A stretch of 38,085 nt of DNA from IMG/VR virus record IMGVR_UViG_3300045988_014547. One strand, written 5' to 3'. The translations under genes were made by a program, and so were the position numbers. Below the pieces are notes generated by a model. The model ran no database searches. It was not told the DNA's origin and saw only the letters and a program-made list of their open reading frames with translations. The DNA comes from a virus. Positions 6,371-12,595 of the stretch are shown piece after piece; the stretch's first letter is position 1; every line of letters starts with the position of its first letter.

Positions 6371-6778
6371 GTGTTTGTTACGACGGTTCAGGACATTATT
6401 TTTGGCATTATTACACAAAAAGAGGCGACCGGCATGACGAACCAGCAGATTGCGGATTCGGCGAAGGTATCAAAGACAACCGTTGACCGATTGCTGCGAA
6501 ACGACCCAGGAACCAGCCCAAATGCGCAGACGCTTATCGATGTAGCAAATGCAGTTGGGTATCAAATCGGAGGCACCGAACCGCACAGTGAGGTGCGGGA
6601 AATCTACGAGGAGCAAATCAAGCAAACGGAAGCGCATTACAACAGAATGCTTACACTGCAAAATCGGTGGCTGCGCTTTGCTGTTCTTCTCTGCCTGATT
6701 TTACTCGTCTTTGTCATAGCAATGCTTCTATTTGATGTGACGCACCCAGACACAGGCTGGATAACAGACAAGAGTTGA
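6371..6778 (+). CDS. Membrane-anchored HTH (XRE-like) regulator
   Basis: HTH segment MTNQQIADSAKVSKTTVDRLL, plus a C-terminal TM helix (FAVLLCLILLVFVIAMLLF). Start codon (GTG at 6371) is uncertain. Confidence 0.55.
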   Translation: MFVTTVQDIIFGIITQKEATGMTNQQIADSAKVSKTTVDRLLRNDPGTSPNAQTLIDVANAVGYQIGGTEPHSEVREIYEEQIKQTEAHYNRMLTLQNRWLRFAVLLCLILLVFVIAMLLFDVTHPDTGWITDKS

Positions 6779-6831
6779 TAGTGCGGGGGTATCAGCGAAA
6801 GCCGATATCCCTTTTTTGCAGGAGGGAAAAC

Positions 6832-7908
6832 ATGGGATGTATCAAATGCGGTCGAGACATTCCCGACGGGGCCATGTTCTGCCCGTGGTGCGGAAAAAAA
6901 CAGGTGCAAGAAAAGCGGAAGGCACTCAAACGGGCAAACGGGACAGGCACGGTTTACAAGCTGTCAGGCCGTCGCAGCCGTCCGTGGGTCGCGGCTAAAA
7001 ACAAGATGGTCATTGGGTATTACGCGAAGAAAACAGAGGCCATGGAAGCCATAGAGCGACTGGCTGGTAGATCAATCTCAGAGCGGTACAATATGACATT
7101 CGAAGAGGTATTTCAGGAATGGAAAGCGGAACACTTCCGGGAAATTGGAGAAAAGAGCATTGCCGCATATGAAAACGCTTACGCAAAAAGCAAGGAGCTC
7201 TATGGTAGGCAGTTTCGCTCCCTGCGCGTAAAGGACTTCCAGTCAATTATTGATAACAACAAAGCTGCCAAGTCACGCTCCGCACAAGCCAAATACAAGC
7301 ATCTGTTTGTGCAACTATCAGAGTGGGCCGTGCGCGAGGAGGCTGCTACGACAAACTACGCCAGATTTGTGAAGCTAGACGGTGAAAAGCCGAAAGAAAA
7401 AGCTGTGTTTACAGATTCAGATATCAAAAAAATGGAAGCAGCCGGAACACCCGCAGCAAAACTCACCCTCATGCTGATTTACACCGGGATGCGCATCGGC
7501 GAAATGTTTTCCCTGCCGCTTTCCGGATATCATGAAACCTATGTTATCGGCGGCGAAAAAACAGAAGCGGGCCGAAATCGAATCATACCGATCCGCCCAG
7601 AGGGGCGTGCCTACTTTGCAGAGATCGCAGCTAGAGCAGACGGTGATCTTCTGATTTCCGGGTATGACGGGCAAAAAGTAGCTGAAAACTTCCGGAAGCG
7701 AGATTATTACCCGATGTTGGAGCAGCTCGGTATTGAAAAAAAGCCACCGCACGCAACGCGTCACACCTTCGCAAGCTGGGCCGTCTCCGCCGGGATCAGA
7801 CCGGAAATGCTGCAGAAAATTCTTGGTCACTCAAACTATGATACAACAGCAGATATATACGTCCACGCAAATATTGATCAGCTTGTGGAAGCGGTAGAAG
7901 CGCACTGA
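6832..7908 (+). CDS. int: Tyrosine integrase with N-terminal zinc ribbon
   Basis: ATG at 6832 after AGGAGGG. Begins MGCIKCGRDIPDGAMFCPWCGKK. C-terminal catalytic signature HATRHTFAS...LGHSNYDTTADIYVH. Confidence 0.9.
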   Translation: MGCIKCGRDIPDGAMFCPWCGKKQVQEKRKALKRANGTGTVYKLSGRRSRPWVAAKNKMVIGYYAKKTEAMEAIERLAGRSISERYNMTFEEVFQEWKAEHFREIGEKSIAAYENAYAKSKELYGRQFRSLRVKDFQSIIDNNKAAKSRSAQAKYKHLFVQLSEWAVREEAATTNYARFVKLDGEKPKEKAVFTDSDIKKMEAAGTPAAKLTLMLIYTGMRIGEMFSLPLSGYHETYVIGGEKTEAGRNRIIPIRPEGRAYFAEIAARADGDLLISGYDGQKVAENFRKRDYYPMLEQLGIEKKPPHATRHTFASWAVSAGIRPEMLQKILGHSNYDTTADIYVHANIDQLVEAVEAH

Positions 7909-7938: not shown

Positions 7939-7960
7939 TTGTTAGCAACGTGTTAGTAAC
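7939..7960. repeat. Arm-type repeat (left of attP core)
   Basis: ttgttagcaacgtgttagtaac matches 8174-8195 at 20 of 22 positions. Each copy is itself a tandem TGTTAG[CT]AA dimer. Confidence 0.6.
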
Positions 7961-8071: not shown

Positions 8072-8116
8072 ATTCGTAATCAGCAGGTCGCCGGTTCGAG
8101 TCCGGCCAGTAGCTCC
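8072..8116 (+). other. attP core: 3' half of a tRNA (anticodon loop to CCA; Thr-CGU-like if the loop is part of the identity block)
   Basis: ttcgtaa-tcagc-aggtc-GCCGG-TTCGAGT-CCGGC-cagtagc-t-cca gives a T-arm, 3' acceptor strand and CCA. No matching 5' acceptor or D-arm lies upstream. Located 160 nt downstream of int. Confidence 0.65.
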
Positions 8117-8156
8117 AAAAAATCCTTGAAAACATCGCGTTTTCAAGGATTTTTTT
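8117..8156. terminator. Bidirectional intrinsic terminator
   Basis: A-run, then 12-bp stem atccttgaaaac / gttttcaaggat with loop atcgc, then T-run. Confidence 0.7.
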
Positions 8157-8173
8157 ATGTGGTCTCGCCTATT

Positions 8174-8195
8174 TTGTTAGTAATGTGTTAGTAAC
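8174..8195. repeat. Arm-type repeat (right of attP core)
   Basis: ttgttagtaatgtgttagtaac; direct repeat of 7939-7960. Confidence 0.6.
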
Positions 8196-8201
8196 TAAGG
8201 G

Positions 8202-8516
8202 TTAAGCGTTGCCAAGCCTGGCAAGAACAGAATTATACGCCGCGGGGTTCACAACTCGAAGCACATCCATTAACTCATCAATAATGGACCATGCCTTTAC
8301 GCTGTCTACCCCAGATACAGCAAGCAAAAACTCGCTTTCTCCATCAATAGACACCGGCTGTGGTTCGTAAACCTCCGAGTTTGAACAGAGCCGTTTGTAA
8401 ATCATCGCAGCATAGAGAGGGGCCAGCCGTTCCATCGTCGCATAAGATGTGTCGCGACTCGCCTCCATGTTGATGATTTCTTTTTCAATCTCGTCAAAGT
8501 CGATCATGGGCGTCAC
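8202..8516 (-). CDS. Hypothetical protein (accessory cassette, gene 6)
   Basis: 104-aa ORF with a GTG or ATG start overlapping the upstream stop. No motif recognised. Confidence 0.55.
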   Translation of the reverse strand: MTPMIDFDEIEKEIINMEASRDTSYATMERLAPLYAAMIYKRLCSNSEVYEPQPVSIDGESEFLLAVSGVDSVKAWSIIDELMDVLRVVNPAAYNSVLARLGNA

Positions 8517-8821
8517 CCGCGATACATCGCCTGATAGTCTTTGACCTCTTTTGCTCTTTCGATCTGCTTCTCGTGCAGGTAGTCATATACGGCCAGCATC
8601 GCGGTAGGTGGCTCGCCGTTTTCCTTGCGGTACTGGGCGATGATGCGCGCGACCTCATCATGCAGCAGTGTCATGTGCCGCATTTCGTCGGTCGACAGGT
8701 CATAAAAAGTTTTCGAGAGCGCGGGGTTCTCTTCCTTATATTTCAGCGCGCACTTGGCATACTTTCCCGCGTCCTCGATCTCTTCGTCGATCATCTCGGA
8801 GAGTTTTTCAATCAACTTCAT
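8513..8821 (-). CDS. Helical, possibly ferritin-like four-helix-bundle protein (accessory cassette, gene 5)
   Basis: ATG at 8821 with AAAGGAG RBS. Sequence MKLIEKLSEMIDEEIEDAGKYAKCALKYKEE...DEMRHMTLLHDEV. The E..H spacing is reminiscent of ferritin-like folds, but the fold call is weak. Confidence 0.45.
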   Translation of the reverse strand: MKLIEKLSEMIDEEIEDAGKYAKCALKYKEENPALSKTFYDLSTDEMRHMTLLHDEVARIIAQYRKENGEPPTAMLAVYDYLHEKQIERAKEVKDYQAMYRG

Positions 8822-8834
8822 GGCCGTTCTCCTT

Positions 8835-9236
8835 TCAGACGCGCTGCACGCGCAGGGCGACATTGCTGACGGTCGATGCCGCGCCGGTCAGCACCAGCGT
8901 GAGCGCAGCGCCGGACGCGCAGCACGCCTGACGCACCAGCGCGGGGAATGCCAGAACAACAGGAGCACCGGCAGCTCCCGCAGCGGAAGCGGTAGCGCCG
9001 GGAACGGCAATGCCGTCCTTGTAGAGAGTCGCCGTGACCGTGCCAGCTGCCGTCGGTGCGACGGTGATAGACGCGTCAACGTCGTAATAGCCATTGCCGA
9101 CGATGTTGGCGGCATTGCCATTGAGCGTGATGTCGCAGCCGTAGCGACGGATCAGGCTTCCAAGTGGGATAACGCCATTGACGGCAACCTCAGTCGGCGT
9201 CTGCATGGCAGTGTAAAGAGCGGATTTACAAGACAT
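8835..9236 (-). CDS. Ala/Gly/Thr/Val-rich beta-type protein, possibly a BclA-C-terminal/C1q-like jelly roll (accessory cassette, gene 4)
   Basis: ATG at 9236 with AAAGGAG RBS. Sequence MSCKSALYTAMQTPTEVAVNGVIPLGSLIRRYGCDITLNGNAANIVGNGYYDVDASITVAPTAAGTVTATLYKDGIAVPGATA...ALTLVLTGAASTVSNVALRVQRV. The alternating beta pattern resembles exosporium BclA CTD-type domains. Cysteines at residues 3, 34 and 104-105. Confidence 0.4.
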   Translation of the reverse strand: MSCKSALYTAMQTPTEVAVNGVIPLGSLIRRYGCDITLNGNAANIVGNGYYDVDASITVAPTAAGTVTATLYKDGIAVPGATASAAGAAGAPVVLAFPALVRQACCASGAALTLVLTGAASTVSNVALRVQRV

Positions 9237-9261
9237 AGTAAAGTCTCCTTTCAAAATATAA

Positions 9262-9284
9262 GGGCGAGGGGATGGCCCTCGCCC
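9262..9284 (-). promoter_or_regulatory. GC-rich hairpin with T-rich tail between cassette genes 3 and 4 (attenuator, terminator or processing site)
   Basis: 9-bp stem gggcgaggg / ccctcgccc with loop gatgg. On the minus strand it is followed by TTATATTTTGA and then the gene-4 RBS. Confidence 0.45.
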
Positions 9285-9335
9285 ATTCACCCGGCCAAAG
9301 AGGGCCTGAACTGTTTCCGGTTTGGAAATAGTTAC

Positions 9336-9974
9336 TCAGATATTGCCGTTGCAGCCGCTATTGCAGCCACAGAACGGGGACGAGCCAGCGCTGTATGTAA
9401 GGCCATTGGGATAGCGAACGACGCCACACATGCGGTTGTCCATTTCAAGGCTTGCTACCTTGTCGCGGAGCGCCTGAAGTTCGTTCGCCTGCATCATTGC
9501 GCGGGTCGCCTCGCCCTCAGCGTGGATGGCCGTCGTGATGTCGCAAGTCTGGCGATCCATCTGCGCGGACAGATTGGCAGTCGCCAGGCGGTTGTCGCAG
9601 CAGCACTGCGCAATCTGGCCATGAATACTGTTGCCGGTCTGCATGATCGTTGTGTTTGTGCCAGCCTGCGCCAGCGCGACCTCCTTGCCAATTTGGCCAA
9701 TATTTCCCTGCATCTCATAGCCGAGCGTGCATAGACCGTTGCCTACGTTGGTGATTCGATCGTTGAGCTGTCCAAAGTGCTGGCCGAACAAGATTTCCTG
9801 TTGGCTGGCTGCAGTGGCGTACTGCCCAAACTCGCCCTGGCGGTTGAAGCCACCCCATCCGCCGCCCATAAAGACGAACAAGAAAAGGATGATAATCCAC
9901 CATGCGCCACCGCCGCCCCAACCGTCGTTGTCTTTGCTAACTGCAGCGAGATCGGAAAGGCTATAGTTGTCCAA
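9336..9974 (-). CDS. Gly/Trp-rich membrane protein with Cys-rich ectodomain (accessory cassette, gene 3)
   Basis: Likely TTG start at 9974 (AAGAGGTG 6 nt upstream); the track ORF starts at 9992. Contains DNDGWGGGGAWWIIILFLFVFMGGGWGGF (TM), then a Q/N/G-rich region with QCCCDNR and a C-terminal FCGCNSGCNGNI. Confidence 0.55.
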   Translation of the reverse strand: MDNYSLSDLAAVSKDNDGWGGGGAWWIIILFLFVFMGGGWGGFNRQGEFGQYATAASQQEILFGQHFGQLNDRITNVGNGLCTLGYEMQGNIGQIGKEVALAQAGTNTTIMQTGNSIHGQIAQCCCDNRLATANLSAQMDRQTCDITTAIHAEGEATRAMMQANELQALRDKVASLEMDNRMCGVVRYPNGLTYSAGSSPFCGCNSGCNGNI

Positions 9975-10021
9975 GTTAAACACCTCTTTCAAATTAAAAT
10001 TATAAACCGTGTCGACCCGGC

Positions 10022-10240
10022 TTATTTCAAAAATTGTATGAAGTCCTTTGCTTGTTTTTGAAGCTGCTGAAATTGATCCTGCGTCATCTGCCCGGACGAC
10101 AGCAACTGTTCAATCTGCTGCTTCGCATTCTGCGGCGTCATACCGGCTGCAAATTTTCTAAACTCAGATATCATTGCAAGCGGGTTATTCTGCTTTCTGG
10201 CCCCGTTTCCCATCAACATTTGCATCATCGGATTTGCCAT
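10022..10240 (-). CDS. Small Q-rich protein (accessory cassette, gene 2)
   Basis: 72 aa. RBS GGAGGA 8 nt upstream of the ATG. Confidence 0.55.
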   Translation of the reverse strand: MANPMMQMLMGNGARKQNNPLAMISEFRKFAAGMTPQNAKQQIEQLLSSGQMTQDQFQQLQKQAKDFIQFLK

Positions 10241-10574
10241 TGATCAAGTCCTCCAATCTCTTCACGCGCTCCTCTAAACTGTTGACATCCACCGGCAAGG
10301 CCGTCTGATATGGTGCAATGCTATACGGTGTGGTCGTCGCATAGCCAGCACCATCCGTCACTTTTAGCCATACAATAGGATCGTTTTCATCCATCAGCAG
10401 AACAGAGCTATTCGGGGCTAGCCTGAGCGCGTCTGCGCCGTTTTTCCCGTTCACGCGGATAATTTGGCCGTTGAAAACTTGCTGCGCTCCTGCGGCGTTC
10501 TGCGGCCCGGTAGGCATGTAATTACTGTATGGGTTATATGGTTGATAAGTATTTCCGTAGTACGGGTATGCCAT
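10185..10574 (-). CDS. Protein with Tyr/Pro/Asn-rich N-terminus (accessory cassette, gene 1)
   Basis: ATG at 10574 after GGAAAGGAATGTGGAG. Sequence MAYPYYGNTYQPYNPYSNYMPTGPQ... followed by a globular region and a short coiled coil. Overlaps gene 2 by 56 nt. Confidence 0.55.
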   Translation of the reverse strand: MAYPYYGNTYQPYNPYSNYMPTGPQNAAGAQQVFNGQIIRVNGKNGADALRLAPNSSVLLMDENDPIVWLKVTDGAGYATTTPYSIAPYQTALPVDVNSLEERVKRLEDLINGKSDDANVDGKRGQKAE

Positions 10575-10692
10575 CGCTCCACATTCCTTTCCTCTAGCAT
10601 TGGGTTGAATAGAATCGCACATTTTTAATTTCCATATAAATCATACAACACGTCGATGCGCGCTGTGCCTCAAAAGCGCATCATCTTTGCGC

Positions 10693-10720
10693 AAAAAAAC
10701 GCCGCCCCGAAGGGCGGCGT
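10693..10720 (-). terminator. Intrinsic terminator (minus sense); copy 1 of a duplicated hairpin
   Basis: 9-bp stem acgccgccc / gggcggcgt with CGAA tetraloop, followed on the minus strand by TTTTTTT. The 26-nt core is identical to 11514-11539. Confidence 0.7.
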
Positions 10721-10753
10721 AAGCTTAACTTTTAAAATATTTTGAAAAAACGC

Positions 10754-10782
10754 TTGACATACCACGCAATGCGTGGTATTAT
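10754..10782 (+). promoter_or_regulatory. Strong promoter with a perfect palindromic operator in its spacer
   Basis: TTGACA (10754-10759), 17-nt spacer, TATTAT (10777-10782). ACCACGCA-A-TGCGTGGT (10761-10777) fills the spacer. An AT-rich UP-like tract lies upstream. Confidence 0.65.
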
Positions 10783-10826
10783 AATCATGCAAACAAAAGA
10801 GGGCAATAGCCCATGAGGATAAAAAA

Positions 10827-11096
10827 ATGAAGCTTACTGATGGAAAGAAAACTGTGGAGATCAAGATCCAGCGTTGGAACGGTTCCGGCTATGACCCCGA
10901 TTGGAGCGCCGACTACTTTACCGCGGGCTCCCTACCGTACAACGAAGAGACCGACACCTACACTGTCGAGGATGTGGATTACTGCATCGAGGCCGCGAAC
11001 ATGGCCAACGAAGACGGCGCTTGCGGCAAGTATGATGAGAATGGCGATCTCGTCCGCGACGAAGACATGTTCGTTTTTGTCGAAGAACTGAATTAA
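10827..11096 (+). CDS. Acidic hypothetical protein (moron gene 1)
   Basis: 89 aa with a GAGGA RBS. One of the few plus-strand genes inside the minus-strand late region. Confidence 0.6.
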   Translation: MKLTDGKKTVEIKIQRWNGSGYDPDWSADYFTAGSLPYNEETDTYTVEDVDYCIEAANMANEDGACGKYDENGDLVRDEDMFVFVEELN

Positions 11097-11110
11097 AGGA
11101 GGAATTTACC

Positions 11111-11461
11111 ATGACCGACAAGCAGTTTTACAGCATCTTTACTGACGCGATCTCGGATGATGGTGCATCACGCGAAGCTTTTGTCTCCGACTGGGCGCTG
11201 AGCTCCATTTGGGATGACGATGATACCCGGGATATCCCAGATGAGCGCATTACCGAGATTGGGGATATTTGGGATGTTGCCCACCTAACGATTTGCGACA
11301 TCCGACAGTATGCCGACCTGTCGCAAGCAAAATTTGCAACTCGCTTTTGCATCCCCCGCCGATCTATTGAGGATTGGGAGTCCGGCGCAAGACGTTGCCC
11401 AGACTATTTGCGTTTGTTGCTTGCACAGGCTGTTGGTTTGTACAATAAGCCTGTTGTCTGA
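11111..11461 (+). CDS. Protein with C-terminal XRE/MqsA-type HTH (moron gene 2)
   Basis: 116 aa with an AAAGGAGGA RBS. C-terminus IRQYADLSQAKFATRFCIPRRSIEDWESGARRCPDYLRLLL resembles antitoxin-type HTH domains. Confidence 0.6.
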   Translation: MTDKQFYSIFTDAISDDGASREAFVSDWALSSIWDDDDTRDIPDERITEIGDIWDVAHLTICDIRQYADLSQAKFATRFCIPRRSIEDWESGARRCPDYLRLLLAQAVGLYNKPVV

Positions 11462-11513
11462 TACCAACGCCGAATAGCTGTGTCTCACTTGTGTATCATA
11501 TTTGACAGAAAAC

Positions 11514-11539
11514 AAAAACGCCGCCCCGAAGGGCGGCGT
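11514..11539 (-). terminator. Intrinsic terminator of the late/lysis operon; copy 2 of the duplicated hairpin
   Basis: Same stem-loop as 10699-10720, followed on the minus strand by TTTTTGTTTTC. Confidence 0.7.
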
Positions 11540-11543
11540 TTAG

Positions 11544-11792
11544 TCAATGCTTAATATGCTTGGTTGCGATCTCCATTTTTCGCTGTATTTCTGGTAAGCG
11601 GCGCTGTACTGTCGCTCTCCCAAGATACAGCTCTGAGGCTATATCAACTTGTGGAATGCGATCCACAAAGTATAGCCGTGCAATCTTTTCGTTCTCTCGG
11701 CCAACACCTGCTGCATCAATCACCTGGAGAAGTTCCGGTTTTGTCAAGCCGGATAAGTCATCTGGCAGGCGTCCCCGCGCCTGCGGACTCAT
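11544..11792 (-). CDS. Small sigma-70 region-4-like HTH protein
   Basis: 82 aa. Contains ENEKIARLYFVDRIPQVDIASELYLGRATVQRRL. The ATG overlaps the endolysin stop. Confidence 0.5.
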   Translation of the reverse strand: MSPQARGRLPDDLSGLTKPELLQVIDAAGVGRENEKIARLYFVDRIPQVDIASELYLGRATVQRRLPEIQRKMEIATKHIKH

Positions 11793-12595
11793 TTGGCCCG
11801 CAGCACCATCGCCGCGACCTCCTCGCGCTTGGCATACCCGCCCGGGCGCGTGCCGTCGGTGATCCCCGCCGATACGGCAGCGGCCAGCTCCTCCTTTGCC
11901 CAGGCGCTGGCCTCGGTTCCCTTGCCCTCAAGGGCAACCTGGATGCGCGCATCAATCAGTGCAATCACTTCCGCTTTCGTCATGTCGATCTCCTCCTTTG
12001 GTTTCATTGCTTTTTCCACATCCTGCCGGAACCCCGCCATTGTATACGGCAGGCCCAGGCCGCGCCACAGATGTTCCGGGTCGACGTGGCCGCTGGCAAT
12101 GCCCCGCTTGCCCGCTTCGTTGTGGCTGAGGATTACGCCGTCCGCCAGCGGATTTTTCCCGTGGAAGCTGCACAGCCGTGCAAAGAGCTGCACAGCGTGC
12201 TGGTACGTCTTGCGGCAATACGCCTGGGCCGCAGCCTTGTCCTGCACAGTAAATCTTGCGCCGCCGGTATAGCGAATCTGCCCCGGTTCGCACATCTCAA
12301 AGCCAATGTACCCATTGTTTCCCGCAGGCTTCCCCGCGTGGGGCATACGCTTCACCTTGCCCGGGGTCTCCAGGCAGGGGGCGGTGAGGTAGACGGTGTC
12401 GGCTCCAATAAAGCCGTTGATCCCCGCATAGGTGAAGCTTGCCTTGTCCCACTGCCGGATAAAGACCAGCGGGTCCGGCTGGCCGACGCCGACGGAGTGG
12501 AGGAAGAACCCCCGGAAGGCGGGTCCTGTGATCCACCGCCCGTCATTGAAATACGGATTCTTCGTCAGATACTTTGTCTCAAGTCGCATCTGCAT
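11789..12595 (-). CDS. Endolysin, N-acetylmuramoyl-L-alanine amidase (Amidase_2/PGRP type) with SLH-like C-terminal motif
   Basis: 268 aa. Located after the holin. Contains HSVG...GFEMCEP...SHNEAG..G.ASGHVDPEHLW. C-terminus SAWAKEELAAAVSAGITDGTRPGGYAKREEVAAMVLRA. Confidence 0.8.
   Translation of the reverse strand: MQMRLETKYLTKNPYFNDGRWITGPAFRGFFLHSVGVGQPDPLVFIRQWDKASFTYAGINGFIGADTVYLTAPCLETPGKVKRMPHAGKPAGNNGYIGFEMCEPGQIRYTGGARFTVQDKAAAQAYCRKTYQHAVQLFARLCSFHGKNPLADGVILSHNEAGKRGIASGHVDPEHLWRGLGLPYTMAGFRQDVEKAMKPKEEIDMTKAEVIALIDARIQVALEGKGTEASAWAKEELAAAVSAGITDGTRPGGYAKREEVAAMVLRAK

Follow-up and report, generated by a model that had tools for sequence, protein, structure and literature searches.

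A recurrent phage gene cassette with BclA-like and ferritin-like members and a candidate regulator, possibly for a membrane-anchored intracellular assembly

Several described systems share features with a cassette of six tightly packed minus-strand genes, g1 to g6, which was identified at positions 8202-10574 of the viral record IMGVR_UViG_3300045988_014547 in IMG/VR (38,085 nucleotides; this whole stretch of DNA is called the window here). BclA is the nap protein of the exosporium in the Bacillus cereus group, and its C-terminal domain is matched by g4 over most of the length; both proteins lack a signal peptide. However, BclA has a collagen-like stalk and a targeting N-terminus, whereas g4 is a bare domain without collagen-like GXX repeats and without an exosporium-targeting N-terminus, is encoded by a phage, and belongs to a cassette family which includes non-sporulating hosts. 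Being BclA-like does not imply an exosporium here, a tempting reading which is probably wrong. Encapsulated ferritin (EncFtn) resembles g5, a protein of about 100 amino acids (aa), about half a ferritin, with a Glu, a Tyr seven residues on and a Glu-x-x-His. EncFtn completes such a half ferroxidase site across a dimer. The cassette of g5 differs in that no encapsulin shell gene was a neighbour in any of the 109 loci collected in this work, and that the g5 C-terminus, KDYQAMYRG, contains no recognisable encapsulin targeting peptide.

Phage morons and lysogenic-conversion cassettes, such as the genes for toxins and immune evasion in prophages of staphylococci and streptococci, have in common with the window cassette the position between the lysis genes and the phage attachment site (attP), terminators of their own and an insertion hot spot. 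The insulated position at a prophage end was thus found as in morons, but confinement to temperate phages was not, for the cassette is also present in virulent-looking phages, head modules and early regions, and is co-inherited as a set of five to seven genes with a regulator. GerE-controlled spore-coat gene sets and the disulfide-linked endospore appendages Ena (DUF3992) have themes in common with the cassette, namely low-complexity proteins rich in Tyr and Gln, small Cys-rich beta sandwiches that carry Cys in an N-terminal tail and as an internal CC motif, a ferritin-like member and a small GerE/LuxR-type regulator. The resemblance is one of "chemistry" only; the hosts reach beyond spore formers, and no cassette member matches Ena/DUF3992 or a Pfam coat family; DUF3992 gave no match at E ≤ 0.1 among 22 members of the g4 family and two g4' proteins (see below). 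Two-component spanins (Rz/Rz1) are similar to g3 in the layout of the i-spanin, but the cassette has no o-spanin lipoprotein, its hosts are mostly monoderm, and g3 is predicted to lie N-out/C-in.

Literature searches on DUF7841, prophage exosporium, phage Ena, virion proteomics of Clostridium perfringens phages and methanogen viruses yielded no description of the cassette. The folds of g4 and g5 are already known, but the multi-gene system, its core g1-g3 and the regulator-operator pair are apparently undescribed. The cassette was filed as an undescribed system because no description of it was found in Pfam, NCBIfam, PADLOC, PHROGs or the searchable literature.

Gene order and distribution of the cassette

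A total of 109 loci were collected from a phage database and from contigs of genomes (18) and of IMG/VR (80); a three-sequence alignment of g3 was used in the collection scan, the six-sequence version being too divergent. The presence of genes was scored with iterated hidden Markov models, one per cassette gene. The genes g1 and g3 were each detected in 107 loci, and g2 and g4 in 101 each, while a different Cys-rich beta protein (g4') was located at the g4 position in 5 loci. Where present, these genes always stood in the order g1-g2-g3-g4, an arrangement that was nearly invariant. The slot after g4 was occupied by g5 in 57 loci, by DUF7841 (PF25223) in 29 and by a protein termed "fer" (phrog_17879, 175-259 aa) in 13, and never by two of them together. 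The last gene, g6, was optional (28/109), and a small protein of 65-77 aa was additional in some loci. The g3 family comprised 4208 clusters at 90% identity and 1036 at 50% identity, none of which had a Pfam domain or an informative name, and the g4 family comprised at least 5786 clusters. That the six open reading frames (ORFs) are chance or unrelated orphans was ruled out by the repetition of the gene order in about 100 independent contigs. The preliminary description, made from the letters of the window, had pointed to co-occurrence and synteny as a check on its proposal, and the genes indeed recur together far beyond the window phage, as a large family of cassettes in tailed phages of the gut.

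The genomic position of the cassette was variable. It lay between the lysis genes and attP/integrase in many lineages, that of the window among them, and the hosts of close relatives were Clostridia. In two loci, L008 (Phage_scaffold, E=1e-21) and L111, it was placed between the portal/minor head protein and the scaffold/capsid genes. In Dulem virus 36, it directly followed the receptor-binding protein, and the first 50 kb of this genome (53.8 kb), the part inspected, had no annotated integrase. In C. perfringens phages it was found among small genes between antirepressor and recombination genes, again without an annotated integrase (PMQ04). The architecture was recognisable in the C. perfringens phages HMD-PC1, PMQ04 and 17DYC and in two lemur-gut viruses. 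Homologues of g3 were present in many crAss-like phages, in one case followed by a relative of g4' (E=1.8e-5) and in another by a small Cys-containing beta-rich protein, as well as in a phage isolated on Bacteroides uniformis (C3_41T2LP), which has a cassette version in its early/recombination region, and in viruses assigned to Methanomassiliicoccales. In Bacteroides-type phages, the g3-like gene headed its own block of about five genes, whose further products were a Cys protein rich in beta structure, one of about 170 aa combining a beta domain with a coiled coil, one of about 75 aa and one of about 130 aa with an HExxH motif. Two HExxH proteins of 115 and 131 aa, which could be minimal zinc metallopeptidases, also flanked the crAss-like cassette version of L114 (5072-5419 and 7652-8047). 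The structural atlas of crAss001 describes the head fibres gp21 and gp29, and contains no g3 homologue.

The cassette was also detected on a bacterial chromosome. Contig L006 (ENA ERZ28750607 contig_4679, 655 kb) showed at 9251-11882 a nucleotide identity of 89% to window 8072-10721, which was the only segment of the phage it held, and all six cassette ORFs were intact. The segment was located between an insertion sequence (IS; rve transposase) and tRNA-Thr(cgt)/MgtC. This contig is a prophage remnant which retained the cassette. BofA was encoded nearby, so its host has a sporulation gene. The homology stopped at 8072, within the 3' half of the tRNA-Thr(cgt) gene of L006, and because of this break the attP core of the window was placed there. 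When the integrase gene beyond attP was used as a search probe, only near-identical phages were returned, every one of them cassette-bearing.

Protein families of the cassette

None of the six window proteins scored above the cut-offs of Pfam, NCBIfam or PADLOC, and the matches in PHROGs were to families of "unknown function" only (g1, phrog_21718, E=2e-8; g2, phrog_22984, E=2.7e-13; g3, phrog_16490, E=2.5e-16). Homologues of g1 and g3 in C. perfringens phages belong to the same PHROGs, 21718 and 16490. The failure of the preliminary description to place any member in a named family was therefore reproduced with the standard libraries, and residue counts agreed with the odd compositions it had reported. 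Its two structural guesses, a BclA-like Ala/Gly/Thr/Val-rich protein and a ferritin-like helical protein, were borne out by the family-level results for g4 and g5 that follow.

The protein g4 consisted of 52% Ala+Val+Thr+Gly and carried an N-terminal Cys as well as a CC motif close to its C-terminal end. Its best four matches in the Protein Data Bank (PDB) were all BclA, and the family profile (A3, 22 sequences) retrieved five BclA sequences of the PDB at E=2e-5 to 2e-4, followed by cerebellin/C1q. The domain PF18573 (BclA_C) was matched by 15 of these 22 members, with a best E=1e-6, and it was precomputed on many g4 homologues with 59-90% identity, mostly 77-80%, while the window g4 alone stayed below the cut-off (E=0.028; 14.7 vs 38 bits). 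At family level, these matches confirmed the prediction that g4 is a stand-alone jelly-roll protein of the BclA C-terminal or C1q/TNF type.

Across 14 diverse members of the g5 family, E14, Y21, E46 and H49 were invariant. The g5 profile matched the ferritin BfrB at E=2e-4, and the invariant residues aligned with the ferroxidase ligands of helices A and B. The Rubrerythrin family PF02915 was matched by 10 of the 14 members (best E about 1e-3), and the window g5 fell under its cut-off with 20.0 vs 22.8 bits. The assignment of g5 as a predicted half-size ferritin-like di-iron protein was thereby confirmed at family level. In the PDB, the "fer" profile retrieved ferritins only (best E=2e-3). Since g5 and "fer" both match ferritins, two of the three alternatives in the fifth slot are ferritin-like. 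The DUF7841 profile had no match in the PDB; by their mutual exclusion in the slot, g5, "fer" and DUF7841 are probably functional analogues, which would be a first context clue for DUF7841.

The sole product with a hydrophobic segment was g3, in which 13 residues were strongly hydrophobic. It began with a short N-tail of acidic character, followed by a hydrophobic helix between Gly/Trp flanks, a predicted single helix of about 130 residues and a C-terminus rich in Pro/Tyr/Cys. It contained 9 Cys, with conserved Cys in GLC and CCC. AlphaFold2, run on a 53-sequence alignment, returned a transmembrane (TM) helix and one long helix at low confidence. Among 247 family members, the N-tail contained on average 3.7 acidic and 0.9 basic residues and the C-flank was neutral, and the N-side flank was more negative than the C-side flank in 237 of them. 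These flank charges favour a predicted N-out/C-in topology. A weak match of g3 to the coiled-coil tail of ZorA was obtained with NCBIfam (E=1e-3) and PADLOC (E=2.3e-3, 14 bits), and no cassette component had a significant match among the defence models of PADLOC-DB. The Gly/Trp-flanked hydrophobic segment and the motif QCCC(E/D)NRLA were retained in the g3-like proteins of four distant loci, L110 (crAss-like cr273_1), L114 (cr116_1), L115 (Bacteroides phage C3_41T2LP) and L116 (Methanomassiliicoccales virus vir215).

In g1, residues 1-34 formed a Tyr/Pro/Asn/Gln-rich, disordered, prion-like head, the first 33 residues of which were 21% Tyr, 15% Pro and 12% Asn. It was followed by a compact alpha/beta domain at 35-95 (a beta-alpha-3-beta unit) and by a C-terminal amphipathic "zipper" helix at 97-112; the AlphaFold2 model had a pLDDT (local confidence score) of about 90 across residues 40-110. 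The family profile of g1 had no match in the PDB or Pfam. Foldseek matches of the model to SH2/Cbl-like structures of the PDB were insignificant (best E=0.22) and were not used. Against BFVD, 21 matches at E≤1e-3 were obtained, mostly "uncharacterized" with a few automatic coiled-coil labels, and they came from uncultured phages labelled as sipho-, podo- and myo-type. The protein g2 was a Met/Gln-rich helical protein (19% Gln, 11% Met). The acidic g6 had a net charge of -9, and its family included C. perfringens phages (phrog_17454); the window g6 had no match in Pfam, NCBIfam or PADLOC, and the family profile none in the PDB. A weak match of g6 to an acyl-carrier-like protein was dismissed, as the would-be Ser was not conserved. 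In L008 (6338-6898), L111 (6270-6794) and L112 (6209-6952), the last cassette gene encoded a protein with helical ends and a low-complexity centre rich in Arg/Tyr/Asp/Gly/Ser, another prion-like or RGG-like member without a Pfam match. All products but g3, five of the six, were without an export signal or a hydrophobic N-terminus, and no lipobox or signal peptide was present in any of the six.

Candidate regulator and possible functions

A small helix-turn-helix (HTH) gene, sig, was located upstream of the cassette in the window, and a sig homologue was found in the same place in 88/109 loci. In about half of them it lay within 300 bp of g1; in the others it was 0.6-2.8 kb off, which marks an insertion hot spot. 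The window Sig matched the sigma70-ECF region 4 of NCBIfam (E=0.0025), and in the family alignment (A8) 11 of 19 members matched Sigma70_r4_2 and 7 of 19 matched GerE (best E=1.5e-11). In distant relatives, the arrangement before g1 was a terminator, which was seen in C. perfringens phages too, then 2-4 direct repeats and a -10-like hexamer without a -35 element. Upstream repeats (at least two) were present in 62/104 loci with a spacing of mostly 11 bp, in some cases 10, 12, 21 or 22 bp. They lay 45-125 nt before g1 in units of 8-10 bp, and 11 bp corresponds to one helical turn (e.g., L055, L029, L026, L014, L042 and L010). The repeat units were alike among loci whose Sig proteins cluster, which suggests that Sig proteins and repeats may be co-evolving activator-operator pairs. 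In the window leader, three TGCGC/GCGC motifs (10689-10693, 10676-10680 and 10658-10664) may constitute a candidate operator; the TGCGC core was common to the window and L068, whose HTH proteins are 37-40% identical. No sigma-70 promoter was called in the g1 leader (10575-10698), and inspection by eye gave no convincing sigma-E/sigma-K-like promoter motif upstream of g1. Sig is therefore a candidate activator of the cassette, and we infer that the cassette is a self-contained, activator-dependent transcription unit.

Based on these results, it is tentatively proposed, as a possibility and with clear reservation, that the six genes form an autonomous accessory operon whose products would make up, while the phage develops, a multiprotein assembly anchored to the membrane on its cytoplasmic side. 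The HTH protein Sig would turn on an activator-dependent promoter before g1, made up of a -10 element without a -35 element and a direct-repeat operator. The product g3 would be inserted in the cytoplasmic membrane so that the short acidic N-tail points outwards and a coiled-coil stalk of about 130 residues and the Cys-rich end remain inside. Because they have no export signals, the other five products, g1, g2, g4, g5 and g6, would assemble on g3 in the cytoplasm, where g4 would work as a C1q/BclA-type trimer, g1 would add its prion-like head as a sticky element together with a novel globular domain and a zipper helix, g2 may be a Met/Gln-rich helper or holdase, g5 would bring di-iron redox or iron chemistry, such as the handling of the many Cys and Tyr, and g6 may be an acidic accessory factor. 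Such an assembly would serve productive phage growth in many hosts rather than a lysogen- or spore-specific trait, and as candidate benefits it could be a platform for assembly or lysis, exclude other phages, or form a cross-linked matrix.

A number of points weigh against this proposal. The interaction among the six proteins is assumed solely from synteny, and g1, g2, g3 and g6 have no experimental or homology-based function. The topology of g3 is read from the charge bias alone, with Lys/Arg counts equal on both flanks, and the pLDDT of its model is low (51). The window promoter region lacks the clear 11-bp repeats of its relatives, and the binding of Sig to such repeats is putative. Furthermore, depositors labelled the crAss-like g3 homologues "spike protein/glycoprotein" or "outer capsid protein/viral fiber", and the placement beside head or tail genes in several phages would suit a virion role equally.

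It is doubtful whether the proposal can be widened so far that gut phages of Clostridia, Bacteroides and possibly methanogens would share a mobile, self-regulated operon making a new membrane-anchored, possibly redox-cross-linked intracellular structure, in which a coiled-coil anchor would be combined with a C1q-like trimer, with prion-like proteins and with a di-iron enzyme, and whose chemistry would be spore-coat-like but independent of sporulation. If the proposal is right, a large fraction of gut phages would carry a multi-protein system which moves as a unit between unrelated phages with its own regulator. Solving the role of the cassette would annotate thousands of "hypothetical" genes together and could uncover a novel structure of the cell or virion that is built by phages, and Sig with its operator would offer a defined promoter-activator pair for the engineering of Clostridia and Bacteroides phages.

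Other explanations were weighed against the intracellular assembly. The cassette might encode an accessory fibre or decoration of the virion, in which a trimeric coiled-coil stalk made of g3 would bear g4 as a distal C1q/TNF-type knob, as in BclA, the adenovirus fibre or reovirus sigma-1, and g1 and g2 would help in assembly or belong to the fibre themselves; such fibres would decorate heads or tails and serve gut adhesion. The head-gene placement in L008 and L111, the position in Dulem virus 36, where the receptor-binding protein directly precedes it, and that between small terminase and capsid genes in the crAss-like cr116_1 agree with it, as do the spike and fibre labels of the depositors, a g4 fold typical of fibre tips, and the diversification at the g4 position (g4 subtypes and g4') that is expected of a binding tip. 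This explanation is unlikely, since a 13-residue hydrophobic segment such as that of g3 is atypical for head or tail fibres, and the cassette has its own terminators and regulator and is not read within the late operon. The early/recombination placement in C. perfringens phages and C3_41T2LP also argues against it, the conserved di-iron slot is hard to fit in a fibre, and a common attachment site is improbable for a g1 family spread over sipho-, podo- and myo-type phages. In addition, phiCrAss001, the one crAss-like phage whose virion is solved, was absent from the 33 phage records matched by the g3-like protein of cr116_1. Three features thus spoke against a plain virion part: a regulator and terminators of its own, a di-iron slot that is conserved, and the independence from virion type. 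It was kept in consideration because in several phages the cassette stands beside head or tail genes and because g4 has a knob-like fold. Remodelling of the vegetative cell surface is unlikely because export signals are missing from all products but g3.

A membrane-based system of superinfection exclusion, defence or anti-defence, in which a g3 complex would block competing phages or counter a membrane-associated defence of the host, is quite unlikely, even though the cassette includes a membrane protein, acts as a mobile unit in typical moron slots, has alternative alleles at positions 4 and 5 beside an insertion hot spot, and gives the weak ZorA coiled-coil tail matches of g3. No PADLOC or NCBIfam model was significant, the known exclusion systems consist of one or two genes and not of five- to seven-gene low-complexity operons with a di-iron enzyme, and the conservation of g3 across Gram-positive, Gram-negative and archaeal-virus contexts argues against an envelope-specific block of entry. 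The preliminary description had favoured lysogenic-conversion cargo that remodels the surface of the cell or spore, with Tyr-rich, Cys-rich, BclA-like and CotJC-type members laid on it as coat- or exosporium-like proteins, perhaps under a GerE-like regulator. The terminator-insulated block between lysis genes and attP, the BclA_C-like g4 and the GerE/LuxR matches of the Sig family would fit this reading, the lack of signal peptides would suit assembly in the mother-cell cytoplasm, C. perfringens phages carry the cassette, and the remnant L006, which encodes BofA, kept just these six genes. It was not sustained and is now regarded as improbable, because the hosts are wide and phages without a lysogeny module carry the cassette: no integrase is annotated in Dulem virus 36 and PMQ04, head-gene clusters and early regions contain the cassette, and g3 with a neighbouring beta-rich protein is found in crAss-like, B. 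uniformis and Methanomassiliicoccales viruses, whose hosts do not sporulate. The missing export signals, as regards the vegetative cell surface, and the absence of a collagen-like stalk or exosporium-targeting N-terminus in g4 add to this. Neither restriction to spore-forming hosts nor a mother-cell sigma promoter, as in spore-coat systems, was recognised, the latter by eye only. Finally, g3 could be a spanin-like or holin-regulating lysis accessory and a partner of the nearby holin and endolysin, as it has the i-spanin architecture of N-terminal TM segment, coiled coil and Cys, and the cassette comes after the lysis genes in the window, L001 and L004 and lies just upstream of the endolysin in cr273_1. 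This is very improbable, because spanins are not needed in monoderm Clostridia, to which most hosts belong, a lipoprotein partner is missing, no product has a lipobox or signal peptide, a holin and an amidase are already encoded by the window phage, and the cassette is distant from lysis genes in many phages.

Boundaries, attachment site and flanking features

The coordinates of the cassette and of its surroundings are collected in Table 1. The length of g1 was set by the gene calls on near-identical public contigs, in which 129 aa were called although the ORF can be extended to 10622. The genes g1 and g2 overlap by 56 nt, an overlap kept in relatives, and the g5 stop overlaps the g6 start by 4 nt.

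Table 1 Features of the cassette and its flanks in the window
Feature	Positions	Strand	Remarks
Integrase gene	6775-7908	plus	beyond attP
attP core	8072-8118	minus	3' half of tRNA-Thr(cgt); homology break to bacterial contig L006
Terminator closing the cassette	8117-8155	minus	17-bp perfect stem, -20.5 kcal/mol, z = -5.7, then T-run; inverted repeat I4
g6	8202-8516	minus	104 aa, GTG start
g5	8513-8821	minus	102 aa
g4	8835-9236	minus	133 aa
Hairpin between g3 and g4	9262-9284	minus	GC-rich, then T-rich sequence; within 99-nt gap
g3	9336-9974/9992	minus	212-218 aa
g2	10022-10240	minus	72 aa
g1	10185-10574	minus	129 aa
Leader/promoter region	10575-10698	minus	-10-like TATGAT at 10640-10645, no -35 element (sequence reading)
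Intrinsic terminator before g1	10699-10720	minus	GC-rich, -20.6 kcal/mol, z = -2.6
Insertion outside the cassette	10721-11513	plus	two genes and a sigma-70 promoter
Insertion gene 1	10827-11096	plus	89 aa, no matches
Insertion gene 2	11111-11461	plus	116 aa, weak match to MqsA-family antitoxin-type HTH (E=0.0034)
Intrinsic terminator after sig	11516-11541	minus	-23.5 kcal/mol, z = -4.7
sig	11544-11792	minus	82-aa stand-alone sigma-70 region-4/LuxR(GerE)-type HTH; last gene after lysin

The terminators which the preliminary description had placed on both sides of the cassette, next to attP, fold stably, and the attP side was corroborated by the homology break in tRNA-Thr. The terminator before g1 shields the cassette from transcription coming from upstream. 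The hairpin between g3 and g4 may be an internal attenuator or processing site, and could set separate levels for g1-g3 and g4-g6. Searches of the flanks and leader with Rfam gave no family near its gathering score, the matches being the terminators themselves. A direct repeat of 22 nt (TTGTTAGCAACGTGTTAGTAAC; copies 91% identical) at 7939-7960 and 8174-8195 brackets the attP core and the tRNA fragment, and its two copies may be arm-type binding sites of the integrase.

On the lysis side, the position described earlier held only in part, because the sig gene and an insertion of 819 bp intervene between the lysis module and g1. On either side of the insertion stands an exact copy, 26 nt long and in direct orientation, of the terminator sequence (10695-10720 = 11514-11539, repeat family D2), and a near-consensus sigma-70 promoter lies inside the insertion at 10754-10782. 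The insertion was missing in the close relatives L004 and L005, and L007 held an IS200-type Y1 transposase in that slot; the slot between sig and g1 is therefore regarded as an insertion hot spot. Elsewhere in the phage, a tRNA-Gly(tcc) gene was located on the minus strand at 29320-29394.

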